The notes below the pieces were generated by a model that saw only the letters and a program-made list of their open reading frames with translations, had not been told where the DNA came from and did no database searches. The position numbers and the translations under genes are program-made. From positions 1-18,256 of the IMG/VR virus record IMGVR_UViG_2778261299_000001: 18,256 nucleotides of DNA; one strand, 5' to 3'. This stretch comes from a virus (lineage: Duplodnaviria; Heunggongvirae; Uroviricota; Caudoviricetes). Shown piece after piece: positions 1 through 18,256 of this stretch. How positions within the stretch are numbered: the first letter of the stretch is position 1; each line of letters begins with the position of its first letter.

Positions 1-13
1 CATTCCTATCAAT

Positions 14-790: not shown

Positions 791-873
791 CAGAAGGATA
801 ATAATTAAGGGATGTCAGTCAACATGGTAATTTCTTGGTGTTGATTGTTTTATTTATCAAAAACATTTTAAGT

Positions 874-907
874 TAGTCTGATCTTCGCGTTCGGTAGGAT
901 CAGACTA
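874..907. terminator. perfect 10-bp inverted repeat (tagtctgatc ... gatcagacta) with 14-nt loop between the convergent cargo gene and Q; possible bidirectional terminator
   Basis: Read directly: 874-883 is the exact reverse complement of 898-907. On the minus strand a U-rich run (UGUUUUUG) follows a few nt after the stem. There is no clean U-tract on the plus side, so the terminator call is tentative. Confidence 0.3.
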
Positions 908-947
908 CTAAATTAACGATATGATTTCATTGATTACGAATGGTTAA

Positions 948-3781: not shown

Positions 3782-3827
3782 GGCACAAACCTACAGCCTT
3801 GAATGAAGGCTTTCCCCGCCTGCGGTT

Positions 3828-3845
3828 TGTGTGGTTGTCGGTACA
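3828..3845. promoter_or_regulatory. TGT-N12-ACA dyad (Ogr/Delta-type activator box) of the late promoter upstream of O, in the divergent P/O control region
   Basis: Read directly: TGT at 3828-3830, 12 nt, ACA at 3843-3845. A -10-like CATAAG lies about 40 nt downstream (3884-3889) and the O start codon is at 3924. P2 late promoters carry this dyad centred near -55. Confidence 0.6.
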
Positions 3846-3923
3846 AATACCGCGCATTGTTTCACTGCCCCCATCACCGCAACCATAAGGCTCCAGTAAG
3901 TTTTTTCTAACGGAGCACGGCTC

Positions 3924-4757
3924 ATGACAGTGAAAGCAAAGCGTTTTCGCATCGGGGTGGAAGGTGCCACTACCGACGGACGCGAAATCCAGCGTGAATG
4001 GTTGGAACAGATGGCAGCCAGCTACAACCCGGCGGTGTATACCGCGCTGATTAACCTTGAGCACATCAAGTCTTATCTGCCGGACAGCACCTTTAACCGC
4101 TACGGCAAGGTGACGGCGCTGTTTGCTGAAGAAATCACGGAAGGTCCGCTGGCAGGCAAGATGGCGCTGTATGCCGACGTTGAGCCAACGGAGTCCCTGG
4201 TGGAACTGGTGAAAAAAGGCCAGAAATTATTCACCTCTATGGAAGTCAGCCCGAAGTTCGCTGATACGGGCAAAGCCTACCTGGTTGGCCTGGCTGCCAC
4301 TGATGATCCTGCCAGTCTGGGTACGGAAATGCTGACATTCAGCGCCAGTGCAGCCCATAACCCGCTGGCAAACCGCAAGCAGAATCCCGCCAATCTTTTT
4401 ACCGCTGCAGAGGAAACGGTGATCGAACTGGAAGAAGTCCAGGATGACAAACCGTCCCTGTTTGCCCGCGTCACGGCGTTGTTTACCAAAAAAGAGCAGT
4501 CCGATGACGCCCGGTTCGCTGATGTGCATAAGGCCGTGGAGCTGGTCGCCACTGAGCAGCAGAACCTGAGCGCACGCACCGAAAAATCCCTGTCTGAGCA
4601 GGAAGAACGCCTGTCTGAACTGGAGACTGCTCTGCAGGAGCAGCAAACCGCCTTTAACGAACTGGTGAATAAGTTGAGTCATGAAGACAGCCGCCAGGAC
4701 TACCGCCAGCGTGCAACAGGCGGTAACGCCCCCGCTGACACTCTGACCAATTGCTGA
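3924..4757 (+). CDS. O: capsid scaffolding protein, P2 gpO-like
   Basis: 277-codon ORF, first gene of the rightward head operon. GGAG 10 nt upstream of the ATG. N-terminal RFRIGVEGATTDGREI resembles the P2 gpO N-terminus as I recall it. Acidic, helix-rich C-terminal half typical of scaffolds. Confidence 0.8.
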   Translation: MTVKAKRFRIGVEGATTDGREIQREWLEQMAASYNPAVYTALINLEHIKSYLPDSTFNRYGKVTALFAEEITEGPLAGKMALYADVEPTESLVELVKKGQKLFTSMEVSPKFADTGKAYLVGLAATDDPASLGTEMLTFSASAAHNPLANRKQNPANLFTAAEETVIELEEVQDDKPSLFARVTALFTKKEQSDDARFADVHKAVELVATEQQNLSARTEKSLSEQEERLSELETALQEQQTAFNELVNKLSHEDSRQDYRQRATGGNAPADTLTNC

Positions 4758-4773
4758 TGGAGCACAAAACCTG

Positions 4774-5832
4774 ATGAAGAAGAATACCCGCTTTGCTTTT
4801 AACGCTTACCTGCAGCAGCTGGCGCGTCTGAACGGTGTGGCAGTTGAAGAACTGTCCAGCAAGTTCACCGTGGAGCCGTCTGTACAGCAGACGCTGGAAG
4901 ACCAGATCCAGCAGTCTGCCGCTTTCCTGACGCTGATTAACGTCACGCCAGTGACTGAGCAGTCCGGTCAGCTGCTGGGGTTGGGTGTTGGTAGCACCAT
5001 TGCCGGAACCACTGACACCACCGCGAAAGAGCGTGAACCTGTCGATCCTACGCTGATGGTCGATGTGGAATACAAATGCGAGCAGACCAACTTTGACACG
5101 GTACTGACCTACGCGAAGCTGGACCTGTGGGCGAAGTTTCAGGATTTCCAGGTGCGTATCCGTGACGCCATCGTGAAACGTCAGGCACTGGACCGCATCA
5201 TGATCGGCTTTAACGGCGTGAAGCGTGCGAAAACCTCCAACCGTAGCGAAAACCCGCTGCTGCAGGATGTGAACAAAGGCTGGCTGCAGAAAATCCGTGA
5301 GGATGCACCGGATCATGTCATGGGCAGCACCACCACGGGCGGTGAAACCACACCGGGCGCGGTGAAAGTCGGGAAAGGTGGCGAATATGCCAACCTGGAC
5401 GCCGTGGTGATGGATGCCGTCAATGAGCTTATCGACGTGGTCTACCAGGACGATGACGATCTGGTGGTGATTTGCGGCCGTGAACTGCTGTCTGACAAGT
5501 ATTTCCCGCTGGTCAACAAAGAGCAGGAAAACAGTGAAAAACTGGCTGCCGATATGATCATCAGTCAGAAGCGCATGGGGGGCCTGCAGGCCGTGCGTGC
5601 GCCGTTTTTCCCGCCGAATGCGCTGCTGATCACCCGTCTGGACAACCTGTCCATCTACTGGCAGGAAGACACCCGCCGCCGTTCAGTTATCGACAACCCG
5701 AAACGTGACCGGATTGAAAACTTTGAATCCGTTAACGAAGCCTATGTGGTTGAGGACTACCGCTGCGCAGCACTGGTGGAAAACATCCAGATTGGCGACT
5801 TCAGCGCCGTCGCAGTAGAAACCGGAGCGTAA
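4774..5832 (+). CDS. N: major capsid protein, P2 gpN-like
   Basis: 352-codon ORF directly after O; size and position match P2 gpN. Confidence 0.85.
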   Translation: MKKNTRFAFNAYLQQLARLNGVAVEELSSKFTVEPSVQQTLEDQIQQSAAFLTLINVTPVTEQSGQLLGLGVGSTIAGTTDTTAKEREPVDPTLMVDVEYKCEQTNFDTVLTYAKLDLWAKFQDFQVRIRDAIVKRQALDRIMIGFNGVKRAKTSNRSENPLLQDVNKGWLQKIREDAPDHVMGSTTTGGETTPGAVKVGKGGEYANLDAVVMDAVNELIDVVYQDDDDLVVICGRELLSDKYFPLVNKEQENSEKLAADMIISQKRMGGLQAVRAPFFPPNALLITRLDNLSIYWQEDTRRRSVIDNPKRDRIENFESVNEAYVVEDYRCAALVENIQIGDFSAVAVETGA

Positions 5833-5835
5833 TCC

Positions 5836-6486
5836 ATGAGCCTGAGTCCCGCACGGCAGCATCGCCTGCGCGTTCAGGCTGAACAGGCCGCCCGCGAGGG
5901 CGGCAGCGTTCGCCACGCGTCGGGCTATGACCTGATGCTGCTGCAACTGGCGGAAGACCGCCGCCGTCTCAAGGGCGTTCAGTCCACGGTCAAAAAAGCG
6001 GAAATCAAGGTGGAGCTGCTGCCGAAGTACGCCGCCTGGGCTGAGGGTGTACTGGCTGCCGGAGGCGCTCAACAGGATGACGTGCTGATGTACGTGATGC
6101 TGTGGCGCATTGATGCCGGAGATTATGCCGGGGCGCTGGAGATCGGGCGTCATGCCCTGCGTCATGGCTGGGTGATGCCGCTGGGTAACCGCAACGTGCA
6201 GACCGTGCTGGCAGAGGAAATGGCAGACGCTGCGCAGAGCGCAATGCTTGCCACTACCGGCTTTGATGCCGATCTGTTGCTGCAGACGCTGGAGCTGACA
6301 GACGGTCTGGATATGCCGGACCAGTCACGGGCGCGTCTGCATAAAGCGATTGGCACTGTCCTGAGTGAAAGTAATCCGGCTTCCGCCCTTAATCATCTCA
6401 ACCATGCGTTACAGCTCGATCCCCGCTGTGGCGTGAAAAAAGACAAACAGCAGCTGGAGCGCAGATTGCGCAATGACAGTCGCTGA
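5836..6486 (+). CDS. M: terminase small (endonuclease) subunit, P2 gpM-like
   Basis: 216-codon ORF starting 4 nt after the N stop. Arginine-rich N-terminus. Position matches P2 M. Confidence 0.75.
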   Translation: MSLSPARQHRLRVQAEQAAREGGSVRHASGYDLMLLQLAEDRRRLKGVQSTVKKAEIKVELLPKYAAWAEGVLAAGGAQQDDVLMYVMLWRIDAGDYAGALEIGRHALRHGWVMPLGNRNVQTVLAEEMADAAQSAMLATTGFDADLLLQTLELTDGLDMPDQSRARLHKAIGTVLSESNPASALNHLNHALQLDPRCGVKKDKQQLERRLRNDSR

Positions 6487-6581
6487 CAGAACGTGCCCCC
6501 GCGCACGGGCGGCACGGGGTGGCGAAAGGCACCGCCACATCAAAACCTCGTCCACCGCCCTCTATTTCAGGAGAAAGCAGC

Positions 6582-7046
6582 ATGAAGTTTGTTGCGCCAG
6601 AACAGGCACCGGAACAGGCGGAAATCATCAGAAATACGCCGTTCTGGCCTGATGTGGACCTGTCGGAGTTTCGCAGCGTGATGCGCACTGACGGCACGGT
6701 GACGCAGCCGCGTTTAAAGCAGGTTGCCCTGTCGGCAATTTCGGAGGTCAACGCAGAGCTGTATGAGTTTCGCAGACGCCAGCAGATGCTGGGGTATGCC
6801 TCGCTGGCAGAAGTTCCGGCGGAACAGCTGGACGGCAAAAGTGAGCGCATTCAGCACTATTTCAACGCGGTTTACTGCTGGGCACGCGCCATGCTCAATG
6901 AGCGTTATCAGGACTATGACGCCACAGCGTCTGGTGTGAAGCGAGGCGAGGAACTGGCGGAAGCAAGCGGTGATTTGTGGCGTGACGCCCGCTGGGCCAT
7001 CAGCCGGGTGCAGGATGCGCCGCACTGCACAGTGGAGCTTATCTGA
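6582..7046 (+). CDS. L: head completion/stabilisation protein, P2 gpL-like
   Basis: ORF in the L position. I prefer the ATG at 6582 (MKFVAPEQ...) because AGGAGA lies 8 nt upstream; an upstream GTG at 6519 is possible but sits inside GC-rich hairpins. Confidence 0.7.
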   Translation: MKFVAPEQAPEQAEIIRNTPFWPDVDLSEFRSVMRTDGTVTQPRLKQVALSAISEVNAELYEFRRRQQMLGYASLAEVPAEQLDGKSERIQHYFNAVYCWARAMLNERYQDYDATASGVKRGEELAEASGDLWRDARWAISRVQDAPHCTVELI

Positions 7047-7249
7047 TGAAAGTGCGTGCGTATCAGTATGACACGGTGGACGCGCTTTGCTGGCGTCATT
7101 ACGGGCGCACGCAGGGTGTCACGGAGCAGGTACTGAAGGCAAATCCGGGGCTTGCCGAATACGGCCCCTTTTTACCTCACGGGCTGCAGGTGGAGCTGCC
7201 GGACATACCGACAACCACCACCGTGCAGACCGTCCAGCTATGGGACTGA
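7046..7249 (+). CDS. X: tail protein X (small LysM-like virion protein), P2 gpX-like
   Basis: 67-codon ORF whose start overlaps the L stop (ATGA at 7043-7048). Size and position match P2 gpX. Confidence 0.7.
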   Translation: MKVRAYQYDTVDALCWRHYGRTQGVTEQVLKANPGLAEYGPFLPHGLQVELPDIPTTTTVQTVQLWD

Positions 7250-7252
7250 ATT

Positions 7253-7468
7253 ATGACGCTTGAGCGAATCAGCGCCTTTATCACGTACTGCATCGCCGTT
7301 GTCCTGGCCTGGCTGGGCGATTTGTCCATCAAGGATGCCTCAACGCTGGGCGGCCTGATGATTGGTGTGCTGATGCTGGCTATCAACTGGTACTACAAAC
7401 ACAAAGCCTACCAGCTTCTGCGCGACGGGCAGATCTCGCGGGAGGACTATGAATCCATCAATCGTTAA
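7253..7468 (+). CDS. small class II holin (pinholin-like)
   Basis: 71-codon ORF with two hydrophobic segments (ISAFITYCIAVVLAWLG and LGGLMIGVLMLAINWYY) and a charged C-terminal tail, immediately upstream of the endolysin gene. Shorter than the P2 Y holin as I recall it. Confidence 0.6.
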   Translation: MTLERISAFITYCIAVVLAWLGDLSIKDASTLGGLMIGVLMLAINWYYKHKAYQLLRDGQISREDYESINR

Positions 7469-7961
7469 ACGCTGCCTTGTCGGGACCGTGCTGGCTATTG
7501 CTGCCACGCTGCCGGGTTTTCAGCAGCTTCACACCTCCGTGGAGGGGCTGAAACTGATTGCCGATTACGAAGGCTGTCGTCTGCAGCCGTATCAGTGCAG
7601 CGCGGGTGTATGGACTGACGGCATTGGTAATACATCTGGCGTCATTCCCGGCAAAACCATTACGGAACGACAGGCAGCAGAAGGGCTTATCTCCAACGTG
7701 CTGCGTGTGGAGCGGTCACTGGAAAGGTGTGTGAAGCAACAGCCACCGCAGAAAGTGTATGACGCGGTGGTGTCATTTGCCTTCAACGTGGGGACAGGTA
7801 ATGCCTGCAGCTCCACGCTGGTGAAATTACTCAATCAGCGGCGCTGGGCGGATGCGTGCCGACAGTTGCCGCGCTGGGTTTATGTGAAAGGTGTGTTTAA
7901 TCAGGGGCTGGATAACCGCCGTGCGCGGGAGATGGCCTGGTGCTTACAGGGAGCAAACTGA
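7449..7961 (+). CDS. K: endolysin, lysozyme-like muramidase with N-terminal signal-anchor-release (SAR) segment
   Basis: 170-codon ORF. The N-terminus has a weakly hydrophobic Gly/Ala-rich stretch (LVGTVLAIAATLPG) followed by a lysozyme-like motif (DYEG..L.PY....GVWTDGIGNT) resembling T4/P1/P21 lysozymes. Confidence 0.8.
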   Translation: MNPSIVKRCLVGTVLAIAATLPGFQQLHTSVEGLKLIADYEGCRLQPYQCSAGVWTDGIGNTSGVIPGKTITERQAAEGLISNVLRVERSLERCVKQQPPQKVYDAVVSFAFNVGTGNACSSTLVKLLNQRRWADACRQLPRWVYVKGVFNQGLDNRRAREMAWCLQGAN

Positions 7962-7962
7962 A

Positions 7963-8340
7963 ATGAAAAAGAAATTAATCAGCGGGCTGTTTCTGATGTT
8001 ATGGATGGCGCTGTTAATCGAAGCAATGGTGTATCCGCAGGGGATTTTTCCGGTACTGGCAGCGTCCGGCGTTTGGGTAGCCTGTTTGCTGACATGGGCG
8101 GTAATTCCGGTAGCACTGGCTGCGTTAATTAAGAATGGCCCGCTCTGGCAGGAGTTGAGGGCATCTTTGCTGAAGACAATTACCCGAAAAGAAAACGTAT
8201 TTATCAGCTGGATGATGCGATTGCTGATTGTCGTCAGTCTCGCCTGGACGGGGTGGGCTATTACCCTGGTCTTTTATCTACTGACCGTTATTGCCTTCTG
8301 GATCACCCGTAATCAGATGGCTCAACAGGTAGCAGCATGA
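7963..8340 (+). CDS. lysA: LysA-like membrane protein (lysis timing accessory)
   Basis: ATG at 7963 with AGGGAG 9 nt upstream. Polytopic hydrophobic protein in the lysA position. Confidence 0.55.
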   Translation: MKKKLISGLFLMLWMALLIEAMVYPQGIFPVLAASGVWVACLLTWAVIPVALAALIKNGPLWQELRASLLKTITRKENVFISWMMRLLIVVSLAWTGWAITLVFYLLTVIAFWITRNQMAQQVAA

Positions 8341-8765
8341 ACCGGTTGCTGCTGGTTGTGCTGGCGTTATTACTGGCGGCGCTGGGCTGGCAGACGTGGC
8401 GGCTGGCTGATGCCAGCCAGACCATCAGCACGCAGGCAGACGAGCTGCAGAGCAAAAGCCAGGCACTGGCAAAGAGCAACAGCCAGCTTATCAGCCTGTC
8501 CATTCTGACTGAAACCAATAACCGGGAGCAGGCGCGGCTCTATGCCGAAGCAGAACAGACCAGCGCGCTGCTGAGACAACGACAACACCGGATCGAGGAA
8601 CTGAAACGTGAGAACGAGGATTTACGTCGCTGGGCTGATACTCCTTTGCCTGCTGACATTATCCGGCTGCGGGAACGTCCGGCACTCACCGGAGGTACGG
8701 CTTACCGTCAGTGGTTGTCCGCGAGTGACGCCGTGTCGGCTGGATCAGGCAACGCCGCGCACTAA
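8337..8765 (+). CDS. lysB: LysB, Rz-like inner-membrane spanin
   Basis: 142-codon ORF whose start overlaps the lysA stop. N-terminal TM segment (LLLVVLALLLAALGW), then coiled-coil-like charged region. Confidence 0.6.
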   Translation: MNRLLLVVLALLLAALGWQTWRLADASQTISTQADELQSKSQALAKSNSQLISLSILTETNNREQARLYAEAEQTSALLRQRQHRIEELKRENEDLRRWADTPLPADIIRLRERPALTGGTAYRQWLSASDAVSAGSGNAAH

Positions 8766-8898
8766 TGGTGATCTGAACGCGTTGCTGGATGAAACGGAGG
8801 CTGCCTGGGCGGTCTGTGCAGACAAAGTGGACATGATTATTGCGTGTCAGGAGCGAAACAGTGAACAAACCACAATCCCTGCGCCACGCCCTCAATAA
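8608..8898 (+). CDS. lysC: LysC, Rz1-like outer-membrane lipoprotein spanin, embedded in and extending past lysB in another frame
   Basis: ORF in a different frame from lysB with a lipoprotein-type signal and lipobox (LLCLLTLSG-C). GTG start at 8608 is a guess; the real start may be further downstream. Confidence 0.45.
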   Translation: MRTRIYVAGLILLCLLTLSGCGNVRHSPEVRLTVSGCPRVTPCRLDQATPRTNGDLNALLDETEAAWAVCADKVDMIIACQERNSEQTTIPAPRPQ

Positions 8899-9292
8899 AG
8901 CGGTGCCTTATGTCCGCAATAACCCGGACAAACTGCATCTGTTTGTGGATAACGGTTCGCTGGTTGCCACGGGGGCCAGCTCCATGTCGTGGGAGTACCG
9001 TTACACCCTGAACGCGGTGATTGAGGATTTCAGCGGCGACCAGAATCTGCTGATGGCCCCGGTTTTGCTGTGGCTGAGGGATAACCAGCCCGATGCCATC
9101 AATAACCCGGCGTTACGGGAAAAACTATTCACCTTTGAGGTGGATATTCTGCGCAACGATGTCTGTGATATCAGCCTGAACCTGCAACTGACGGAGCGTG
9201 TGCTGGTCAGCACTGACGGCAGTGTGTCGAGCGTTGAAGCTGTAGCGGAACCTGATGAACCTGAAGAAATGTGGACGGTGAAACGTGGCTGA
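8861..9292 (+). CDS. R: tail completion protein, P2 gpR-like
   Basis: ORF in the R position. I prefer GTG 8861 (VNKPQSLRHAL...) because AGGAG lies 7 nt upstream; the ORF track start at 8840 is a TTG. Confidence 0.7.
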   Translation: MNKPQSLRHALNKAVPYVRNNPDKLHLFVDNGSLVATGASSMSWEYRYTLNAVIEDFSGDQNLLMAPVLLWLRDNQPDAINNPALREKLFTFEVDILRNDVCDISLNLQLTERVLVSTDGSVSSVEAVAEPDEPEEMWTVKRG

Positions 9293-9731
9293 ACTGCAGA
9301 AAGTGGACGACTGGCTGAGTGCCTTGCTGGCGAATCTGGAACCAGCCGCAAGAAGCCGCATGATGCGCCAGCTGGCGCAGGAACTGCGCCGGACACAGCA
9401 GCAGAATATCAGAATGCAGCGCAATCCAGATGGCAGCAGTTATGAACCTCGACGGGTAACAGCACGCAGTAAAAAGGGGCGCATCAAACGTCAGATGTTT
9501 GCAAAGCTGCGCACCACAAAATACCTGAAAACTGCCGCCAGCGCCGACTCTGCCAGCGTACAGTTTGAAGGCAAAGTGCAGCGTATTGCCCGTGTTCACC
9601 ATTACGGCCTGCGTGATCGCGTCAGTCGCAAAGGACCGGAGGTCCGTTACGCAGAGCGCCGCCTGCTGGGTGTAAATGATGATGTTGAGGCAATGACCCG
9701 CGACATGATTCTGCAATGGCTGGCGGGGTGA
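9285..9731 (+). CDS. S: tail completion / virion morphogenesis protein, P2 gpS-like
   Basis: 148-codon ORF with GTG start overlapping the R stop. Size and position match P2 gpS. Confidence 0.7.
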   Translation: MAELQKVDDWLSALLANLEPAARSRMMRQLAQELRRTQQQNIRMQRNPDGSSYEPRRVTARSKKGRIKRQMFAKLRTTKYLKTAASADSASVQFEGKVQRIARVHHYGLRDRVSRKGPEVRYAERRLLGVNDDVEAMTRDMILQWLAG

Positions 9732-9735
9732 TCTT

Positions 9736-9753
9736 TGTATCAGCACTGATACA
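9736..9753. promoter_or_regulatory. TGT-N12-ACA dyad (Ogr-type box) of the late promoter upstream of V
   Basis: Read directly: TGT 9736-9738, 12 nt, ACA 9751-9753, in the 68-bp S-V intergenic gap. Spacing to the V start codon (9800) is short, so the exact transcription start is uncertain. Confidence 0.5.
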
Positions 9754-9799
9754 AGTTGCAGCACTGCCGCCTTTCTTCCCCTGATGGCAACCTTTCCCT

Positions 9800-10378
9800 A
9801 TGAACGCACAATTAACCGAAATCATGCGCCTTATCACCAACCTGATTCGCACAGGGGTAGTCACCGAAGTGGACAGGGAAAACTGGCTTTGCCGGGTGAA
9901 AACGGGCGAGCTTGAAACCAACTGGATTAGCTGGCTGACGCTGCGTGCCGGGAATGCCCGCACATGGTGGCGACCATCGGAAGGTGAGCAGGTGGTGCTG
10001 CTGAGTCTGGGCGGCAATCTGGAAACCGCCTTTGCGCTGCCCGCTGTCTATTCGAATCAGTTCGCACCACCGTCGACGTCGGCGGACGCCTGCGTGACAG
10101 AACATCCTGACGGTGGCTGGTTTGAATACGAACCCGCCACCGGGCGCTGGTATGTCAGGGGCATCAAATCAATGGTCATTGAGGCCGCTGACAACATCAC
10201 CATGAAAACCAGTGAGTTTGTACTGGAGGCTGACCGCACGCGCATTAACAGCGAAGTGGTGATCAATGGTGGCGTTACCCAGGGCGGCGGAGCGATGAGT
10301 TCTAACGGGATCGTGGTTGATGCGCATCAGCATACTGGCGTCCTGAAAGGCGGCGATACAACCGGAGGCCCGGTATGA
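9800..10378 (+). CDS. V: baseplate spike/assembly protein, P2 gpV-like
   Basis: 192-codon ORF, first gene after the S-V promoter gap. Gly-rich C-terminus typical of gpV-like spikes. Confidence 0.8.
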   Translation: MNAQLTEIMRLITNLIRTGVVTEVDRENWLCRVKTGELETNWISWLTLRAGNARTWWRPSEGEQVVLLSLGGNLETAFALPAVYSNQFAPPSTSADACVTEHPDGGWFEYEPATGRWYVRGIKSMVIEAADNITMKTSEFVLEADRTRINSEVVINGGVTQGGGAMSSNGIVVDAHQHTGVLKGGDTTGGPV

Positions 10379-10734
10379 CGCTTTATAGCGGGATGAACAA
10401 TACCAGCGGTAAAGCCATTACTGATATTGACCATCTGCGTCAGTCGGTGCGGGACATTCTACTGACACCGCAGGGTAGCCGCATTGCCCGTCGTGAATAT
10501 GGTTCCCTGCTGTCGACACTGATAGACCAGCCACAAAATCCGGCATTACGCCTGCAGGTCATGTCGGCAGTGTATGTGGCGCTGAGTCGCTGGGAGCCAC
10601 GGCTGACGCTGGATTCCATCACCATTAAAAGCAATTTTGACGGTTCAATGGTGGTGGGGCTGACCGGGCGGCGTAATAACGGTGTGCCTGTTTCCCTTTC
10701 CGTATCAACAGGAGCAGAGAATGGCAGTGATTGA
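10375..10734 (+). CDS. W: baseplate wedge protein, P2 gpW-like
   Basis: 119-codon ORF overlapping the V stop (ATGA). Size and position match P2 gpW. Confidence 0.8.
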   Translation: MTLYSGMNNTSGKAITDIDHLRQSVRDILLTPQGSRIARREYGSLLSTLIDQPQNPALRLQVMSAVYVALSRWEPRLTLDSITIKSNFDGSMVVGLTGRRNNGVPVSLSVSTGAENGSD

Positions 10735-11629
10735 CCTTTCGCAGTTGCCTGCGCCGCAGATTGTGGATGTGCCGGACTTTGAGACGCTGCTTGCCGAACG
10801 CAAGGCAGAATTTGTGGCGCTTCATCCGAAAGATGAGCAGGAAGCAGTAATGCGTACGCTGGAGCTTGAATCTGAACCCGTCACCAAATTGCTGCAGGAG
10901 AACGCTTACCGTGAGTTGCTTCTGCGCCAGCGCATTAACGAAGCCGCGCAGGCTGTGATGGTGGCTTACGCGATGGGCGGCGATCTTGACCAGCTCGCTG
11001 CCAACTACAACGTGACACGCCTGACGGTGACGCCTGCTGATAATGATGCTGTGCCGCCCGTTGCAGCTGTGATGGAAAGCGATGAAGCGTTACGCCTGCG
11101 TGTGCCTGCAGCCTTTGAAGGGCTTTCTGTTGCGGGGCCAACTGCAGCTTATGAATTTCATGCCCGAAGCGCCGACGGTCGGGTGGCGGATGCCAGTGCA
11201 ACCAGCCCGGCACCTGCAGAGGTGGTACTGACTGTCCTGAGTCGTGAAGGCGACGGAACAGCAGAAAAAGACTTGCTGGATGTGGTGGAGAAAGCCCTGA
11301 ACAGTGAGAACGTCCGCCCGGTGGCTGACCGTCTGACGGTTCGCAGCGCAGAAATCATCCCGTACCGTGTGGAAGCTACCATTTTTCTTTATCCGGGACC
11401 GGAAGCAGAGCCGGTAATGGCAGCGGCAAAAGTCAGCCTGCAGAGGTACATCGCCAGTCAGACGCGGCTGGGTCGGGATATTCGCCGTAGCGCCATTTTT
11501 GCCGCCCTGCATGTTGAGGGTGTGCAGCGTGTGGAACTGGCTTCTCCGCTGGCGGATGTGGTCCTGAACAAAACACAGGCGGCATCATGTACGCAGTGGA
11601 GCGTAACCAACGGAGGAACGGATGAATAG
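10721..11629 (+). CDS. J: baseplate assembly protein, P2 gpJ-like
   Basis: ATG at 10721 with AGGAG 6 nt upstream gives 302 codons, matching P2 gpJ length as I recall it. The ORF track start at 10682 is a GTG. Confidence 0.85.
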   Translation: MAVIDLSQLPAPQIVDVPDFETLLAERKAEFVALHPKDEQEAVMRTLELESEPVTKLLQENAYRELLLRQRINEAAQAVMVAYAMGGDLDQLAANYNVTRLTVTPADNDAVPPVAAVMESDEALRLRVPAAFEGLSVAGPTAAYEFHARSADGRVADASATSPAPAEVVLTVLSREGDGTAEKDLLDVVEKALNSENVRPVADRLTVRSAEIIPYRVEATIFLYPGPEAEPVMAAAKVSLQRYIASQTRLGRDIRRSAIFAALHVEGVQRVELASPLADVVLNKTQAASCTQWSVTNGGTDE

Positions 11630-12227
11630 TCTGCTGCCACCGGGTTCAACGCCACTGGAGCGCCGACTGGCACAAACCTGCAGCGGGATTTCTGATTTGC
11701 AGGTGCCGCTACGTGACTTGTGGAATCCGGCGACCTGTCCGGTCAGTTTCCTGCCTTATCTCGCCTGGGCGTTCTCTGTGGATCGCTGGGACGAGGGCTG
11801 GACAGAAAGCGTCAAGCGCCAGGTGGTGAAGGATGCTTTTTATATTCATCAGCATAAAGGAACCACCAGTGCCGTGCGGCGGGTGGTGGAGCCGTTCGGC
11901 TTCCTGATCCGCATTATTGAGTGGTGGCAGACCGGAGAAACACCGGGCACGTTTCGCCTGGATATCGGCGTGCAGGACCAGGGCATCACTGAAGATACCT
12001 ATCTGGAACTTGAGCGACTGATAAGCGATGCCAAACCATGTAGCCGTCACATGATCGGCATGTCTATCAATCTGCAGACCAGCGGCCCGCATTGGGTGGG
12101 AGCCGCCAGCTATCTTGGCGAAGAAATCACGATCTATCCGTATATCAACGAAACAATTATTTCCGGCGGCACCGCGCATGAAGGCGGGGCGGTCCATGTT
12201 ATTGACACAATGAGAGTGAATCCATGA
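11622..12227 (+). CDS. I: baseplate/tail protein, P2 gpI-like
   Basis: 201-codon ORF overlapping the J stop, followed directly by H. Confidence 0.75.
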   Translation: MNSLLPPGSTPLERRLAQTCSGISDLQVPLRDLWNPATCPVSFLPYLAWAFSVDRWDEGWTESVKRQVVKDAFYIHQHKGTTSAVRRVVEPFGFLIRIIEWWQTGETPGTFRLDIGVQDQGITEDTYLELERLISDAKPCSRHMIGMSINLQTSGPHWVGAASYLGEEITIYPYINETIISGGTAHEGGAVHVIDTMRVNP

Positions 12228-13810
12228 GCACAAAATTTTATACCCTGCTGACGGATATTGGCGCGGCGAAACTTGCCAGCGCCGCCGCGCTCGGTGTGCC
12301 TTTAAAAATTACCCATATGGCAGTCGGCGATGGCGGCGGAATATTGCCAACGCCGGACGCAAAGCAGACAGCACTGGTAAATGAGAAACGCCGGGCTGCG
12401 CTGAATATGCTCTATATCGACCCGCAGAACAGCAGCCAGATTATTGCCGAACAGGTGATCCCTGAAAATGAGGGCGGTTGGTGGATCCGTGAAGTGGGCC
12501 TGTTTGATGAGTCCGGGGCATTGATTGCCGTGGGTAACTGCCCGGAAAGCTATAAGCCGCAACTGGCTGAAGGCAGCGGGCGTACCCAGACCGTGCGCAT
12601 GGTGCTGATTACCAGCAGCACGGACAATATCACCCTGAAAATCGACCCTGCCGTCGTGCTGGCAACCCGCAAGTATGTGGATGACAAGGTACTGGAGCTG
12701 AAGGTGTACGTGGATGACCTGATGGCAAAACATCTTATCGCACAGGACCCACATTCACAGTACGCGCCAAAAGCCAGCCCGACATTTAGCGGAACCCCCA
12801 AAGCGCCAACGCCAGCGGCGGGGAATAATACCACGCAGGTTGCGACCACTGCGTTTGTACAGGCGGCACTGACGGCCCTTATTAATGGTGCGCCAGCCAC
12901 GCTGGACACGTTGAAAGAAATAGCCGCAGCCATTAACAATGATCCGAATTTCAGTACCACCATTAACAATGCGCTGGCACTGAAAGCACCGTTGTCGAGT
13001 CCGGCACTCACCGGAACGCCAACAGCCCCCACGGCGGCGCAGTCGGTCAACAATACACAGATTGCCACTACGGCTTTTGTGAAATCGGCGATTGCAGGAA
13101 TGGTGGGTTCTGCACCTGCTGCACTGGATACACTGAACGAACTGGCGGCGGCACTGGGAAATGATCCGAACTTTGCCACGACAATGCTTAATGCGCTGGC
13201 AGGTAAACAACCGCTGGACAATACGCTTACCAATTTGAGTGGAAAGGATGTGGCTGGTCTTCTCGCATACCTTGGTTTGGGAGAAGGCTCAGCATTACCT
13301 GTTGGGGTGCCTGTTCCGTGGCCTTCAGCCACTCCGCCAACAGGCTGGCTGAAATGCAATGGTGCGGCTTTTTCTGCTGAAGAATACCCGGAACTGGCAA
13401 AGGCTTACCCGACAAATAAATTGCCTGATTTACGCGGTGAATTTATTCGTGGATGGGATGATGGGCGCGGGGTGGATGCGGGGCGAGCCTTGTTAAGTCT
13501 TCAGGATGACTCTTTTGAAGCTCACAGACATGAGTCCTTTTTTTACGCGGGTATTTCACGCAATGAAACACCATTAAAAAATCTTCCAAGTTCAGACGAG
13601 ATGCTGACTTTAAGTTCCACAACTAATGCCTTGTCCCCGGACAGTATTGATGCCACCAATTCGTTAATTGGTAATGATGATTACAACTGTCTGATTGAAG
13701 GAAATAAAAATAACAAACGAACGGCAACGGGGTTGAGTACCAGTATTGTCGGTGCAGCAGAGACACGCCCACGTAATATTTCATTTAATTACATTGTGAG
13801 GGCTGCATGA
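12224..13810 (+). CDS. H: tail fibre protein, P2 gpH-like, with conserved N-terminal part, internal repeats and a C-terminal collar-like receptor-binding tip in the current orientation
   Basis: 528-codon ORF. Two diverged copies of an ~55-aa motif in the middle. C-terminal segment (WLKCNGAAFSAEEYPELAKAYP..LPDLRGEFIRGWDDGRGVDAGR...H.H) resembles phage tail-collar domains. An invertase crossover site lies inside the gene at 13260-13285. Confidence 0.85.
   Translation: MSTKFYTLLTDIGAAKLASAAALGVPLKITHMAVGDGGGILPTPDAKQTALVNEKRRAALNMLYIDPQNSSQIIAEQVIPENEGGWWIREVGLFDESGALIAVGNCPESYKPQLAEGSGRTQTVRMVLITSSTDNITLKIDPAVVLATRKYVDDKVLELKVYVDDLMAKHLIAQDPHSQYAPKASPTFSGTPKAPTPAAGNNTTQVATTAFVQAALTALINGAPATLDTLKEIAAAINNDPNFSTTINNALALKAPLSSPALTGTPTAPTAAQSVNNTQIATTAFVKSAIAGMVGSAPAALDTLNELAAALGNDPNFATTMLNALAGKQPLDNTLTNLSGKDVAGLLAYLGLGEGSALPVGVPVPWPSATPPTGWLKCNGAAFSAEEYPELAKAYPTNKLPDLRGEFIRGWDDGRGVDAGRALLSLQDDSFEAHRHESFFYAGISRNETPLKNLPSSDEMLTLSSTTNALSPDSIDATNSLIGNDDYNCLIEGNKNNKRTATGLSTSIVGAAETRPRNISFNYIVRAA
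13260..13285. repeat. left 26-bp invertase crossover site (gix/hix-like), inside H at the constant/variable boundary
   Basis: TTCTCGCATACC-TT-GGTTTGGGAGAA is an imperfect palindrome of two 12-bp half-sites of the type TTCTC..AAACC around a central TT. Its right half is the exact reverse complement of the left half of the site at 14898-14923. Confidence 0.75.
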
Positions 13811-14415
13811 TGTATAACGCTATCTTAAATAATAAATTTATTGCCACAAAGGCAGGAGAGATTACCGTTTATAACTATGACAGTGAGACACGGGAGTATA
13901 TTTCTGCATCAATTGAATATCTTGCTGTGGGTGTCGGTATCCCCGCATATTCCTGTTTAGATGCTCCTGGCACACATAAGGCTGGTTATGCAATCTGCCG
14001 TTCTGCAGATTTTAACTCATGGGAATATGTGCCAGACCATCGCGGTGAAATCGTCTTTAGCACCGAAACAGGAGAATCAAAAGAAATCACAGCTCCGGGT
14101 GATTACCCTGATAATACAACCACTATCGCCCCGTTAACACCATACGATAAATGGGATGGTGAGAAATGGGTGACGGATACCGAGGCACAGCATAGCGCCG
14201 CAGTAGATGCAGCAGAAGCACAACGCCAGTCGCTGATTGATACTGCAATGGCTTCCATCAGTCTGATTCAACTGAAATTACAGGCCGGACGGAATCTGAC
14301 GCAGGCAGAAACCAGCCGACTTAACACGGTGCTGGATTACATTGACGCGGTGACGGCAACAGATACCAGCACCGCGCCTGATATTATTTGGCCTGTATTC
14401 CCTGAGACTGATTAA
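13807..14415 (+). CDS. G: tail fibre assembly chaperone (Tfa; P2 gpG / Mu U-like)
   Basis: 202-codon ORF overlapping the H stop (ATGA). C-terminus TDTSTAPDIIWPVFPETD closely resembles the conserved C-terminus of lambda Tfa as I recall it. Confidence 0.85.
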   Translation: MMYNAILNNKFIATKAGEITVYNYDSETREYISASIEYLAVGVGIPAYSCLDAPGTHKAGYAICRSADFNSWEYVPDHRGEIVFSTETGESKEITAPGDYPDNTTTIAPLTPYDKWDGEKWVTDTEAQHSAAVDAAEAQRQSLIDTAMASISLIQLKLQAGRNLTQAETSRLNTVLDYIDAVTATDTSTAPDIIWPVFPETD

Positions 14416-14644
14416 CCTCAATTAGTATTGGTTCGCCTTTCTCATTAATTGTTAGCTCCATGCCCTGAGGAATTTCTGTCATAGTAAAAAACCAATTGTC
14501 CTCCGGTAATTCAATAGCCCCGGTCACGTCATGAAGACCGGGGATTACTTCAGTCAAAGTAACTGGATTAAACAGGCGCACAATAAACCCTCCAGGAAAA
14601 AGCATTTGATGATGGTCTGCCGTCGTACATCTGGCAGCGGGCAT
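14384..14644 (-). CDS. possible alternative tail-fibre assembly chaperone (G'-like) or decayed remnant
   Basis: Only minus-strand ORF between the G stop and the alternative fibre-tip cassette. At 86 codons or fewer it is short, none of its candidate ATGs has a convincing ribosome-binding site, and it lacks the Tfa C-terminal motif seen in G. Confidence 0.3.
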   Translation of the reverse strand: MPAARCTTADHHQMLFPGGFIVRLFNPVTLTEVIPGLHDVTGAIELPEDNWFFTMTEIPQGMELTINEKGEPILIEVNQSQGIQAK

Positions 14645-14897
14645 AAAAGCCGGTATTTGTTACCTGATCATCCACGATCATTGAAACGTGAACATTATTA
14701 GGTGTGCTCTCGTAATCCGTTCTTATTCTTTCCGCGATACTGATAAAACGTGAAAGTTTAGGCAGTGCAATTGGGTAAACAACTTTAGCCAGTCCATTAT
14801 CATTAGATCCACCGGTTCCAAATACTTCTATTGCACCATCTGACCAGCGTATCCATGCACCATTGGCATTAGCTCCTCGCTGAATGACATATCTGGC
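14568..14897 (-). CDS. promoterless alternative tail-fibre C-terminal cassette (H'v); expressed only after inversion, as an in-frame fusion to the constant part of H
   Basis: The minus-strand frame runs through the right crossover site encoding GLGE, the same residues and frame as LGLGE at the left site in H. After inversion H would continue as ...GLGEARYVIQRGANANGAWIRW... for about 108 codons to the stop at 14568-14570. Confidence 0.65.
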   Translation of the reverse strand, partial: ARYVIQRGANANGAWIRWSDGAIEVFGTGGSNDNGLAKVVYPIALPKLSRFISIAERIRTDYESTPNNVHVSMIVDDQVTNTGFYARCQMYDGRPSSNAFSWRVYCAPV

Positions 14898-14923
14898 TTC
14901 TCCCAAACCAACGTTTATGAAAA
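14898..14923. repeat. right 26-bp invertase crossover site (gix/hix-like), just upstream of the invertase gene
   Basis: TTCTCCCAAACC-AA-CGTTTATGAAAA. The left half-site is an exact 12/12 reverse-complement match to 13274-13285, and the central dinucleotide is inverted relative to the left site. Confidence 0.75.
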
Positions 14924-14978
14924 TGCAGAGATAATGGCTAACTGGCATCATCCACGGTTTTTATTCAGGGGATTGATC

Positions 14979-15545
14979 ATGCTTATTGGCTATGTACGCG
15001 TGTCAACAAATGACCAGAACACCGATTTGCAACGTAATGCACTGAACTGCGCGGGATGTGAGCGGATTTTTGAGGATAAAATCAGTGGCACTAAGTCCGA
15101 CAGACCGGGGCTTAAAAAACTGTTCAGGACACTATCGGCAGGAGACACTCTGGTTGTCTGGAAGCTGGACAGGTTGGGGCGCAGTATGCGGCATCTTGTT
15201 ACGCTGATAGAAGAGTTGCGTCAGCGTGGCGTGAATTTCCGAAGCCTGACTGACAGTATTGATACCAGCACCCCAATGGGCCGTTTCTTTTTTCATGTCA
15301 TGGGGGCCCTGGCTGAAATGGAACGCGAACTGATAGTTGAACGTACCATGGCAGGGCTGGCTGCAGCTCGTGCCAAAGGCAGAGTAGGTGGACGCCGTCC
15401 TAAGTTGACCACCGAACAGTGGGCACAGATTGGGCGTTTACTCGAGGCCGGAGAATCAAGACAGCGTATTGCACTGATTTTTGATGTAGGCGTTTCTACC
15501 ATTTATAGAAAATTTCCGGCAAATAAGAGCAATGAATCCCCCTGA
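14979..15545 (+). CDS. serine-recombinase DNA invertase of the Gin/Hin/Pin/Cin family
   Basis: ATG at 14979 with AGGGGA 7 nt upstream. N-terminus MLIGYVRVSTNDQNTDLQ carries the catalytic serine motif of this family. Near-colinear with e14 Pin, Mu Gin and Hin as I recall them, including the C-terminal helix-turn-helix (GVSTIYRKF). Confidence 0.9.
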   Translation: MLIGYVRVSTNDQNTDLQRNALNCAGCERIFEDKISGTKSDRPGLKKLFRTLSAGDTLVVWKLDRLGRSMRHLVTLIEELRQRGVNFRSLTDSIDTSTPMGRFFFHVMGALAEMERELIVERTMAGLAAARAKGRVGGRRPKLTTEQWAQIGRLLEAGESRQRIALIFDVGVSTIYRKFPANKSNESP

Positions 15546-15593
15546 ATCAGCATTATTTTGATTATCCCTGCAAGTAGACAAATACCGTCATTT

Positions 15594-15611
15594 TGTGTGA
15601 ATAACGACACA
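15594..15611. promoter_or_regulatory. TGT-N12-ACA dyad (Ogr-type box) of the late promoter upstream of FI
   Basis: Read directly: TGT 15594-15596, 12 nt, ACA 15609-15611. A -10-like CATAGG lies about 40 nt downstream; AGGAGG is 9 nt before the FI start at 15688. Confidence 0.6.
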
Positions 15612-15687
15612 ACTGCGCTTAGCTGTTTGTCAGGCACAATCACTTCAACATAGGGCGAAGCCTAATCCAATCAGGAGGTTCGCCACT

Positions 15688-16860
15688 ATGGCTCAGGATT
15701 ACCACCACGGGGTGCGCGTTGTTGAAGTCAACGAAGGCACCCGATCTATTACCACGGTGAGCACCGCCATCGTGGGTATGGTCTGCACGGGCGATGATGC
15801 CGATGCAAAAATGTTTCCTCTTAATAAACCCGTGCTGATCACTGATGTGCTGACTGCCAGCGGTAAAGCGGGTGAGTCAGGTACTCTGGCCCGTTCGCTG
15901 GATGCCATCGCTGACCAGGCAAAACCCGTGACCATTGTTGTGCGTGTGCCGCAGGGTGAAACGGAAGACGAAACCACGACCAATATCATCGGCGCAGTGA
16001 CTGCTGAAGGTAAAAAAACAGGTATGAAAGCCCTGTTATCTGCCCAGTCACAGCTCGGCGTTAAACCGCGCATTCTCGGCGTGCCAGGCCACGACACCAA
16101 GGCGGTAGCTACTGAGTTGCTGAGCGTGGCGCAAAGCCTGCGTGGATTTGCTTACCTGTCAGCGTATGGCTGCAAGACAGTGCAGGAGGCGATCACTTAC
16201 CGCGAAAACTTCAGCCAGCGCGAAGGGATGCTGATCTGGCCTGACTTTACTGGCTGGGACACGGTGCTGAATGCCGAAGCAACGGCATATGCCACCGCCC
16301 GTGCGCTTGGTCTGCGCGCCAAAATTGACGAGCAGACCGGATGGCACAAAAGCCTGTCCAACGTGGGCGTGAACGGTGTCACCGGAATTTCTGCAGATGT
16401 GTTCTGGGATCTGCAGGACCCGGCAACCGATGCAGGTCTGCTGAACCAGAACGACGTCACCACGCTTGTGCGTAAAGACGGTTTCCGCTTCTGGGGTTCC
16501 CGCTGCCTGAGTGATGACCCGCTCTTTGCCTTCGAAAACTACACCCGCACGGCGCAGGTGCTGATGGACACGATGGCAGAAGCACACATGTGGGCGGTGG
16601 ATAAACCGCTTAACCCGTCGCTGGCCCGCGACATTATCGAAGGTATCCGCGCCAAAATGCGCAGCCTGGTCAGTCAGGGCTATCTCATTGGTGGTGATTG
16701 CTGGCTGGATGAGTCGGTGAACGACAAAGACACGCTGAAAGCCGGAAAACTCACCATCGACTACGACTACACGCCAGTGCCGCCACTTGAAAACCTGATG
16801 CTGCGTCAGCGCATCACCGATCAGTACCTGGTGAATTTCGCCAGCCAGGTCAGCGCGTAA
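15688..16860 (+). CDS. FI: contractile tail sheath protein, P2 gpFI-like
   Basis: 390-codon ORF with strong ribosome-binding site, first gene after the late promoter box. Size and position match P2 FI. Confidence 0.9.
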
Positions 16861-16869
16861 GGGGACAAC

Positions 16870-17385
16870 ATGGCTTTACCACGCAAATTAAAACACCTGA
16901 ACCTGTTTAACGACGGGAACAACTGGCAGGGGATCGTTGAGTCGCTGACGCTGCCGAAATTTACCCGCAAATATGAGAAGTATCGCGGCGGCGGAATGCC
17001 GGGTGCGGTGGATGTGGATCTGGGGCTTGATGACAGTGCGCTGGACACAGAATTTTCCATTGGTGGTACTGAATTGCTGCTGTTTAAACAGATGGGTAAA
17101 GCCACGGTGGATGGCATCCAGCTGCGCTTTACCGGCTCTATTCAGCGTGACGATACCGGGGAAGTGCAGGCCGTGGAGCTTGTCGTGCGTGGACGTCACA
17201 AAGAAGTGGATTCCGGCGAGTGGAAGACGGGCGAAAGCAACACCACCAAAGTGACCAGTACCAACAGCTACGCGAAGCTGACCATCAATGGTGAGGTGCT
17301 CTATGAAGTGGACCTTATCAACATGGTGGAAATTGTGGACGGTGTGGACCTGATGGAAGCGCACCGCAACGCCCTCGGCCTCTGA
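16870..17385 (+). CDS. FII: tail tube protein, P2 gpFII-like
   Basis: 171-codon ORF directly after the sheath gene; size matches P2 FII. Confidence 0.85.
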   Translation: MALPRKLKHLNLFNDGNNWQGIVESLTLPKFTRKYEKYRGGGMPGAVDVDLGLDDSALDTEFSIGGTELLLFKQMGKATVDGIQLRFTGSIQRDDTGEVQAVELVVRGRHKEVDSGEWKTGESNTTKVTSTNSYAKLTINGEVLYEVDLINMVEIVDGVDLMEAHRNALGL

Positions 17386-17396
17386 TATATCTGAAC

Positions 17397-17414
17397 GGCG
17401 CGGGATACCGCGCC
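17397..17414 (+). terminator. GC-rich hairpin (GGCGCGG-gata-CCGCGCC) between tube gene and E; possible attenuator rather than full terminator
   Basis: Perfect 7-bp GC stem with 4-nt loop, 12 nt after the FII stop. No U-tract follows, so an intrinsic-terminator call is weak. Confidence 0.25.
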
Positions 17415-17439
17415 AGAACCCAATTGACAGGACAGCAAA

Positions 17440-17742
17440 ATGAGCGATAAGCAGACTGAAAAGACCATTCAACTGGATACCCCCATCAAGCGCGGTAAAA
17501 CAGAAATCACCGAAATTGTGCTGCGTAAACCGCAGTCCGGTGCGCTGCGCGGTACACGCCTGCAGGCCATTATGGATATGGATGTGAACGCGATGATGAC
17601 CGTGATCCCCCGCATCTCCAGTCCGGCACTGACTGCACAGGAAATTGCAGAGATGGACCCGGCAGATCTCACTGCCATGTCGGTTGAGGTTGTCACTTTT
17701 TTGTTGAAGAAGTCGGTGCTTGCCGGTTTACCGACAGCCTGA
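17440..17742 (+). CDS. E: tail assembly chaperone, P2 gpE-like (zero-frame product)
   Basis: 100-codon ORF after the tube gene that contains the T6G slippery site near its 3' end. Confidence 0.75.
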   Translation: MSDKQTEKTIQLDTPIKRGKTEITEIVLRKPQSGALRGTRLQAIMDMDVNAMMTVIPRISSPALTAQEIAEMDPADLTAMSVEVVTFLLKKSVLAGLPTA

Positions 17743-17876
17743 CGGTTGACGATCTGGTGGCAGATATCGCCACCATTTTTCACTGGCCGCCATCCGTTAC
17801 TGACGTTATGCCGCTGACCGAAGTGCTGGAATGGCGGTATAAAGCGATTCAGAGAAGCGGGGCCAACGATGAGTGA
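17440..17876 (+). CDS. E+E' frameshift fusion product (tail assembly chaperone extended form)
   Basis: Zero frame to the slippery site, then -1 frame (GTT GAA GAA GTC ...) for 57 codons to TGA 17874-17876, overlapping the T start at 17869. Analogous to P2 E/E' and lambda G/GT. Confidence 0.6.
17697..17703 (+). promoter_or_regulatory. programmed -1 ribosomal frameshift slippery heptamer T TTT TTG (E/E')
   Basis: TTTTTTG read directly at 17697-17703, in the E frame as ACT TTT TTG. The -1 frame is open from here to TGA at 17874-17876. Confidence 0.65.
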
Positions 17877-18204
17877 TAACAACCTGCGTCTGCGGGTCAT
17901 TCTTAATGCGGTTGACAAGCTCACCCGCCCATTTCGATCTGCGCAGGCCAGTTCAAGAGAACTGGCTGCTGCTGTCAAAAAATCCCGCGATGCAATAAAG
18001 CAGCTTGATCAGGCCGGGAGCAGTCTGGACAGCTTCCGAAAGCTGCAGGCAGAAAATCAGAAATTAGGCGACAGGCTGAACTATGCCCGCCAGCGTGCAA
18101 ATTTGCTCAGTCAGGAACTGGGAGCGATGGGGCCGCCTTCGCAACGTCAGGTTGTTGCTCTGGGCCGTCAACGGCTGGCTGTGTGTGTCACGAAGGAGAA
18201 CTGA
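17869..18204 (+). CDS. T: tail tape measure protein N-terminal portion (P2 gpT-like); reading frame ends prematurely at 111 codons
   Basis: Starts at ATG overlapping the E' stop, with a coiled-coil-like N-terminus in the T position. Tape measures in this family are several hundred residues, but here TGA at 18202 is followed by TAG and all three frames are closed shortly afterwards. Confidence 0.6.
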   Translation: MSDNNLRLRVILNAVDKLTRPFRSAQASSRELAAAVKKSRDAIKQLDQAGSSLDSFRKLQAENQKLGDRLNYARQRANLLSQELGAMGPPSQRQVVALGRQRLAVCVTKEN

Positions 18205-18256
18205 TAGCGGCAATATGAAAATTGCAGCATAAGTTATCCATGCTCTGAGGTGGGTG

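Follow-up and report, generated by a model that had tools for sequence, protein, structure and literature searches.

The window, by which we mean the whole 18,256-nucleotide stretch analysed here (IMG/VR virus record IMGVR_UViG_2778261299_000001, positions 1 to 18,256; Caudoviricetes), covers the late region of a P2-like (Peduovirus) prophage, and the coordinates with which we are concerned are 99.8% identical to Escherichia coli chromosomes. It carries a tail-fibre gene, H, whose distal tip lies on an invertible segment, and our subject is the silent, alternative cassette of that segment, in which a second tip is followed by a 65-codon open reading frame (ORF) that we call mini-Tfa after the tail-fibre assembly (Tfa) proteins. 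We propose, as the best explanation and one that we consider probable, that the alternative cassette is intact and that its tip is assisted or capped by a partner consisting of a Tfa N-terminal domain only. The features at the locus are as follows.

12224-13271, plus strand: constant part of H, the tail-fibre gene, as far as the crossover core (TT, 13272-13273); PF12571 N-terminal fibre domain, E 1.2e-64.
13260-13286: left crossover site, within H at the boundary of its constant and variable parts (...LLAYLGLGE...); the best inverted repeat of the region.
13272-13810, plus strand: variable tip of H now expressed, collar-domain type; PF07484 Collar, E 4.6e-15, residues 361-408.
13807-14415, plus strand: G, a full-length Tfa of 202 amino acids (aa) and partner of the current tip; PF02413 Caudo_TAP, E 5.5e-32; phrog_105, E 2.3e-97.
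14384-14581, minus strand: mini-Tfa, 65 codons plus stop, GTG start; WP_001440573.1 in other genomes, phrog_5400; placed by its homologues, purifying selection and homology to the Tfa N-domain.
14568-14911, minus strand: silent alternative tip cassette, joining H at the crossover core; phrog_2557, E 7.9e-22, and a weak match to PF21882.
14588-14593, minus strand: Shine-Dalgarno sequence GGAGGG of mini-Tfa, inside the Trp-Arg codons of the tip; read from the sequence.
14897-14923: right crossover site, 55 nt before the start of the invertase; inverted-repeat partner of 13260-13286.
14979-15545, plus strand: serine DNA invertase (Gin/Cin/Pin/Hin type), 188 aa, ATG at 14979; PF00239 Resolvase, E 4.5e-52; PF02796 HTH_7, E 1.8e-15; phrog_125 DNA invertase, E 7e-100.

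The genes follow in the order I (11622-12227), H (12224-13810), G, invertase and a sheath gene at 15688, and the start taken for the invertase agrees with that of the Prokaryotic Genome Annotation Pipeline (PGAP). With a serine invertase adjoining it and two 27-nt sites that are 81% complementary, one of them inside the fibre gene, the segment can be assigned on its sequence as a tail-fibre switch of the Gin/Cin/Pin type. An earlier model-made note on this DNA, here the sequence-only reading, had assumed an invertible segment and had paired H in its current orientation with a full-length Tfa-like G; both points hold, G being a Caudo_TAP protein whose C-domain matches Tfa profile positions 50-127. 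The Mu G segment (Gin), the P1 C segment (Cin) and the e14 P segment (Pin) likewise have an adjoining serine invertase, inverted sites of about 26 bp with one in the fibre gene, and two convergent cassettes of tip plus partner, and as in those segments both orientations are observed. Mu and P1 have a full-length Tfa in both cassettes. We did not find a full-length Tfa for each orientation in the window: unlike Mu and P1, its alternative cassette carries the 65-aa N-domain protein only, and its two partner genes share 32 nt at their 3' ends (14384-14415).

The minus-strand tip cassette runs from 14911 down to its stop at 14568 and is followed, as the sequence-only reading had it, by a short ORF only, which ends at 14384. 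The statement that this ORF has no good ribosome-binding site does not stand. The minus strand from 14596 to 14568 reads TCCTGGAGGGTTTATTGTGCGCCTGTTTAA, in the tip frame TCC TGG AGG GTT TAT TGT GCG CCT GTT TAA, and holds GGAGGG (14593-14588), a 6-nt spacer and a GTG (14581-14579), with the start of mini-Tfa overlapping the last codons and the TAA stop of the tip by 14 nt; the site had been missed because ATG starts alone were considered. The size of 86 codons given earlier corresponds to an in-frame upstream extension through the tip gene, the actual product being 65 aa, and PGAP annotates the identical product (WP_001440573.1) in E. coli strains M8 and WAT. Codons 1-56 (14581-14414) form a conserved core; the variable tail that follows it, codons 57-65, lies opposite the 3' end of G in antisense. 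A six-frame search of 13200-15000 with a Tfa profile hidden Markov model (HMM) places the C-domain in G on the plus strand only, in agreement with the reported lack of a Tfa C-terminal motif in the short ORF; on the minus strand it matches profile positions 7-53 only, within the small ORF, and finds no frameshifted C-domain remnant, so that the suggested simple pseudogene, a frameshifted full-length Tfa homologue, falls away. Every E. coli genome record inspected lists the silent tip cassette and mini-Tfa as hypothetical proteins, and mini-Tfa bears this label throughout. Mini-Tfa itself has no match in NCBIfam, and for its family we found no Pfam or NCBIfam model, no functional PHROG label and no mention in the literature.

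On the same strand, an ORF listed at 14568-14951 (127 aa) starts at ATGs outside the invertible segment (14912-14951), in the spacer that separates it from the invertase gene. In unflipped genomes PGAP calls a 126-aa hypothetical protein there, whose first 13 codons do not belong to the fibre tip.

Mini-Tfa is a real gene under purifying selection. A search of 5.8 billion proteins found 123 relatives, all of 46-91 aa, and the exact sequence of the window is present on 997 contigs; the relatives occur in at least ten genera, including Escherichia, Enterobacter, Salmonella, Citrobacter, Hafnia, Pseudescherichia, Pantoea, Erwinia and Xenorhabdus. They align over a 56-residue core (MRLFNPxTxTEVIPGxHDxxGAIELPxDNWFFxxxEIPxGKxLxVNxxGEPxLxD) with 16 invariant columns, after which the tail differs freely in sequence and length. 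Among ten loci from different genera the synonymous sites are saturated, the proportion of synonymous differences (pS) being 0.64-0.96 against 0.02-0.34 for nonsynonymous differences (pN), with a median pN/pS of 0.30 and a ratio of substitution rates (dN/dS) of 0.03-0.21 where computable. Read in four of the five other frames the same DNA gives pN/pS of 0.96-1.46; the fifth, the antisense reverse-complement frame 2, has its third-codon positions in common with the true frame and comes out at 0.40, near the value of the true frame, and hence the frame control is not fully clean. The sequence-only reading had offered a decaying alternative half of the switch as one possibility, and had itself named conservation of the short ORF under purifying selection, as is seen here across many genera, as the observation that would speak against it.

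The relation of this family to Tfa proteins emerges through longer intermediates. Mini-Tfa matches phrog_5400 (unknown function; E 7.9e-25) over profile positions 1-66 of 145 only, a partial coverage explained by the existence of longer relatives. One of these is JK004_1 of Cronobacter phage JK004 (128 aa), which follows a homologous tip cassette, matches mini-Tfa over residues 1-56 (tblastn E 4e-5) and is a Caudo_TAP protein (E 1.4e-20, residues 36-127 on profile positions 36-130). Another, P0137 (131 aa), was found with phmmer among 1.84 billion representatives; it is 45% identical to mini-Tfa over residues 1-54 (E 7.8e-6) and is also Caudo_TAP (E 3.2e-20). Both consist of the same N-terminal domain plus a Caudo_TAP C-terminal domain, and such long forms are rarer than the short one; the other phmmer matches were P0144 (147 aa), P0136 (108 aa, with a different C-terminus) and several more short-only representatives of 57-60 aa. 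When residues 1-57 of the mini-Tfa family were compared by hhalign with columns 1-61 of a Tfa alignment that included the long forms, the probability was 99.2%. In PDB 5YVQ the match of the Tfa C-domain is to Mu U residues 104-175 (5YVQ_B, E 3.6e-15), which places mini-Tfa at the position of the TfaMu N-domain. The mini-Tfa alignment stops about 0-13 residues past the N-domain, and the conserved C-terminal helical domain (ending ...VD....WP..P) is absent.

Because the long forms share its N-domain and the profile comparisons align it to the Tfa N-terminus, mini-Tfa can be identified from these alignments as a member of the Tfa family that has the N-terminal, fibre-binding domain but not the conserved C-terminal one. 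It is previously undescribed, and it is a Tfa reduced to its N-domain and not a new kind of system. The idea of a novel small chaperone, raised in the sequence-only reading, is thus favoured by the evidence, except in the sense of a protein unrelated to Tfa, since this one is a homologue of the Tfa N-domain. A longer counterpart elsewhere, which that reading proposed to look for, exists in part: JK004_1 and P0137 carry the Caudo_TAP C-domain, but the 123 relatives from the protein search are all short.

Salmonella phage MET_P1_103_31 had been a candidate holder of a longer orthologue of the small ORF and was rejected, as the alignment shows its alternative cassette to be an unrelated tip with its own 146-aa Tfa. 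This phage retains two full-length convergent Tfas that overlap by 29 nt. We speculate that two convergent Tfa C-domain coding regions might once have made up a near-palindrome, and that the deletion of one of its arms might have left the short form.

The protein searches also returned two giant surface-protein-like sequences, P0121 (2709 aa) and P0129 (1373 aa), with many repeats of about 82 aa (...DLNLSNDLTAEQVLEALKKATGINDLTLDDFEF...), to which the mini-Tfa query aligned in 15 stretches (summed E 2e-32) and 5 stretches (1e-11), respectively, at about 26-30% identity. The resemblance is probably a summed weak or compositional match to the repeat and no evidence of function, and a small fold may be shared between mini-Tfa and these repeats.

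The linkage of mini-Tfa to the alternative tip was scored in a collection of loci, 9 of them taken from species-representative genomes and 58 from viral contigs of IMG/VR; about 55 loci were scorable. In these collected loci the small ORF has 57-69 aa, and a homologous alternative tip lies directly upstream in every scorable one (tip HMM E 1e-19 to 1e-72); the 14-nt overlap with the tip stop is the same in about 50 of the 55, and a GGAG-type motif stands at the equivalent position in 54 of them, the exception being locus L060. Several of the genome-derived loci are stand-alone contigs of 1.2-1.7 kb with both ends at the ...NLGL/LGLGE crossover sequence, as assemblers yield for a segment that occurs in both orientations. 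In 5 of 9 loci (the window at 14384-14415, and the equivalent positions in L004, L006, L008 and L009) the stop codon of the partner Tfa falls within 1 nt of codon 56 of the small ORF, irrespective of the type of partner. The variable tail of mini-Tfa is therefore mere antisense read-through of the 3' end of the partner, and the two convergent genes are packed together until their constrained codons touch.

The chromosome of Xenorhabdus bakwenae holds two modules of tip, mini-Tfa and partner Tfa on different fibre genes (L011 and L013; 473 and 558 aa), one adjoining an invertase and the other a topoisomerase III-like gene with no invertase within the 8 kb examined. In E. coli W (L015, NC_017664.1, 4063-5488), where the segment is flipped, an IS3-family element separates the fused H'-alternative tip gene from the small ORF, and it removes the first codons of the latter and its coupling to the tip.

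The alternative orientation is found in nature. In complete E. coli genomes the flipped junction, in which the constant part of H runs into the alternative tip, is recovered as a single end-to-end alignment (up to 99.0% identity) in 35, and the unflipped junction, with the alternative tip beside the invertase, in 70, a total of 105 that accounts for the 106 genomes in which the cassette is present; two assemblies labelled DH5alpha differ in the orientation of the segment. E. coli WAT is annotated with a fused fibre of 463 aa, the same protein as is obtained by flipping the window in silico, followed by the same 65-aa ORF, and a fused, expressed form of the tip is also present in Enterobacter soli and Xenorhabdus khoisanae. 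Furthermore, at least ten P2-like loci (L007, L043, L049-L052, L054, L056, L066 and L067) have no invertase, no other Tfa and no second cassette, which leaves the tip and mini-Tfa as the sole fibre end of these fixed elements: some phages rely on the pair alone. Their order is a fibre gene ending in an alternative-type tip, the small ORF and, 140-390 nt on, the sheath gene, and they retain the LGLGE crossover-site sequence inside H. One of them, L049, is a close relative of the window prophage with the same I, constant part of H and sheath genes.

These counts bear on the view that a former full-length Tfa is in decay, with the small ORF as its stump, and that only the present orientation gives infectious particles. 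Such a stump would account for the absence of the C-terminal domain that is present in G, Mu U/U' and P1 U/U', for the last nine codons being antisense read-through of G, for the disruption of the 5' end by IS3 in E. coli W and for the few sequenced phage isolates that carry the small ORF. It does not account for a core conserved by purifying selection in at least ten genera despite saturated synonymous sites, for the conservation of the Shine-Dalgarno sequence and the 14-nt overlap, for the lack of a C-domain remnant in any frame, for the flipped state in one third of the E. coli assemblies or for the at least ten loci that have the tip and mini-Tfa as their sole fibre end. This view, of decay with only one infectious orientation, is largely refuted by these observations and we regard it as scarcely credible.

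The tip itself is of a recognizable type. After inversion the fibre protein reads ...GLGEARYVIQRGANANGAWIRWSDGAIE...SWRVYCAPV*, with the TAA stop at 14570-14568, and the cassette is under constraint (median pN/pS 0.40 across genera). Its match to PF21882 (gp53-like_C) scores 18.4 bits, under the gathering score of 24.9, and an AlphaFold2 (AF2) model from a 15-sequence alignment is an eight-stranded beta structure with a mean predicted local distance difference test (pLDDT) score of 78.6 and a predicted template-modelling (pTM) score of 0.70. In a Foldseek search of the PDB with this model the top matches were the fibre foot of R2/R1 pyocins (6ct8, 6cl6, 6cxb, 6cl5) and gp53 of Acinetobacter phage AP22 (4mtm), with E values of 8e-6 to 6e-5, probability 1.00, template-modelling (TM) scores of 0.61-0.67 and sequence identities of 16-17% only. 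The alternative tip thus models as a lectin-fold foot of the kind found in the fibres of R-pyocins and in AP22 gp53. It has in common with R-type pyocin fibres (PA0620, whose chaperone is PA0621) and with gp53 both this predicted lectin-type beta-sandwich and the setting of a P2-like contractile tail. Fragments of the R1 and R2 pyocin fibres needed co-expression of the cognate chaperone to give soluble protein, and the chaperone co-purified (PMC6363177); the tip is therefore of a kind that normally comes with a bound partner.

The requirement of the pyocin fragments, the closest solved folds, for chaperones in soluble expression is also one of two points that speak against a tip that folds alone, with the 65-aa protein as a virion accessory on it, a distal adhesin or transient cap that either takes part in receptor binding or masks it. 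The other is the strict translational coupling to the tip, which fits co-translational help at least as well. In favour of an accessory, TfaMu stays bound to the tip of the finished fibre and is reported to help binding to lipopolysaccharide (PMC8174754; PMC10579305), transient cap chaperones dispensable for folding have been proposed (PMC10579305), three other small lectin-type tip cassettes in JK004 have no Tfa after them, and the C-domain that mini-Tfa lacks is the part credited with driving trimerisation. This is the main rival to our explanation, and we hold it to be unlikely. The roles of accessory and chaperone would be compatible with each other, and sequence data cannot separate them.

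On the explanation that we prefer, the invertase would flip 13272-14911 and the late H transcript would then encode the 463-aa H', the last ~113 residues of which are predicted to form the lectin-fold foot tip. Mini-Tfa, translationally coupled directly after the tip of H', would be made in roughly equimolar amounts, would bind the nascent alternative tip with one copy per chain, and would assist or stabilise the folding of the foot domain, probably staying on the finished fibre as a distal cap. Tip binding, chaperone or cap activity and a dispensable C-domain are what we infer from the arrangement. The stronger claim that a 56-residue Tfa N-domain alone suffices to fold, stabilise or cap a trimeric lectin-foot tip we put forward tentatively, our judgement falling a little on the side of doubt.

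The folding function could in principle also be supplied in trans by a full-length Tfa, either G or the Tfa of another prophage, with mini-Tfa as a mere adaptor; E. coli genomes often have several Tfa genes, and Tfa C-domains are similar across families. After inversion, however, G is antisense to the late transcript, and a promoter scan shows no site above chance facing G in the flipped state; the fixed loci, moreover, are entirely without G. For these reasons a supply of G in trans is unlikely, and with the N-domains of G and mini-Tfa, on which tip specificity depends, unrelated to each other, we consider the whole alternative very improbable.

Several results weigh against the assignment of mini-Tfa as an N-domain-only partner of the tip. 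When the long forms are removed, hhalign of the family against four canonical short Tfas gives a modest E of 3e-4 and 39% probability, in the register that would be expected (21-57 against 31-66, ending at the ...DIPPPT linker). Neither the mini-Tfa of the window nor any of 28 family members matches PF02413 Caudo_TAP even at E <= 10, PDB sequence searches with mini-Tfa and its family profile returned chance matches only, and the single-sequence AF2 model of mini-Tfa (pLDDT 50.8) is not a confident structure. The pairwise divergences of tip and mini-Tfa show no clear co-variation (Pearson 0.37, Spearman -0.02). Only two records in 50,697 GenBank phage genomes hold a mini-Tfa homologue, and the evidence for infectious particles with the alternative tip is for that reason indirect. 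Finally, the prevailing model would give the role of trimerisation to the very domain that is absent, which would leave the assembly of a trimer by a monomeric N-domain unexplained; self-trimerisation of the tip may be the answer, and would make mini-Tfa more a cap or adhesin than a foldase.

Among known systems the Caudo_TAP Tfas (lambda Tfa, P2 G, Mu U/U', and TfaMu with its fibre in PDB 5YVQ) likewise stand directly after the fibre gene and are co-transcribed with it. Mini-Tfa is homologous, via the full-length intermediates JK004_1 and P0137, to their N-terminal, tip-specific domain, which in Mu and Pam3 is the part observed on the fibre (PMC9608196), but it has 65 aa against their ~125-200 aa, and their C-terminal helical domain (...W..Y..L..VD....WP..P) is wholly absent from it. 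In Tfas the N-domain is variable and binds the fibre, and the C-domain is conserved, helical and trimerising (PMC9608196); gp25 of cyanophage Pam3 grips the fibre tip with its beta-rich N-domain and trimerises through its C-domain (PMC9608196), and the protein of the window keeps only the first of these modules. The division of labour in the Tfa model, with binding by the N-domain and the drive to fold from the C-domain, rests on Mu and Pam3, and a natural, widespread and selected N-domain-only Tfa is a ready test of it. If an N-domain alone does suffice, an entire and widespread class of P2-like fibres in enterobacteria would do without the conserved C-terminal trimerisation domain, and mini-Tfas would belong to the virion as an unannotated component with a share in defining host range. 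The retargeting of P2-like phages or R-type tailocins requires transfer of the cognate chaperone, which for the alternative tip family would be a 65-aa ORF labelled hypothetical or missed by annotation pipelines, and tip swaps that omit mini-Tfa, or supply G instead, may fail.

The JK004 locus (L005, 1987-5116) is a further observation on tips of this type. A fibre gene of 417 aa is followed there by four tip-sized cassettes of 110-119 aa on one strand (3248-3601, 3640-3999, 4412-4750 and 4784-5116), two of which start with the GEAAKREVGT junction of the fibre tip itself. JK004_1 follows only the cassette homologous to the alternative tip of the window, and the other three, of lectin type, are the ones without a Tfa. 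The arrangement looks like multi-cassette fibre diversification in a 94-kb phage or plasmid-prophage.

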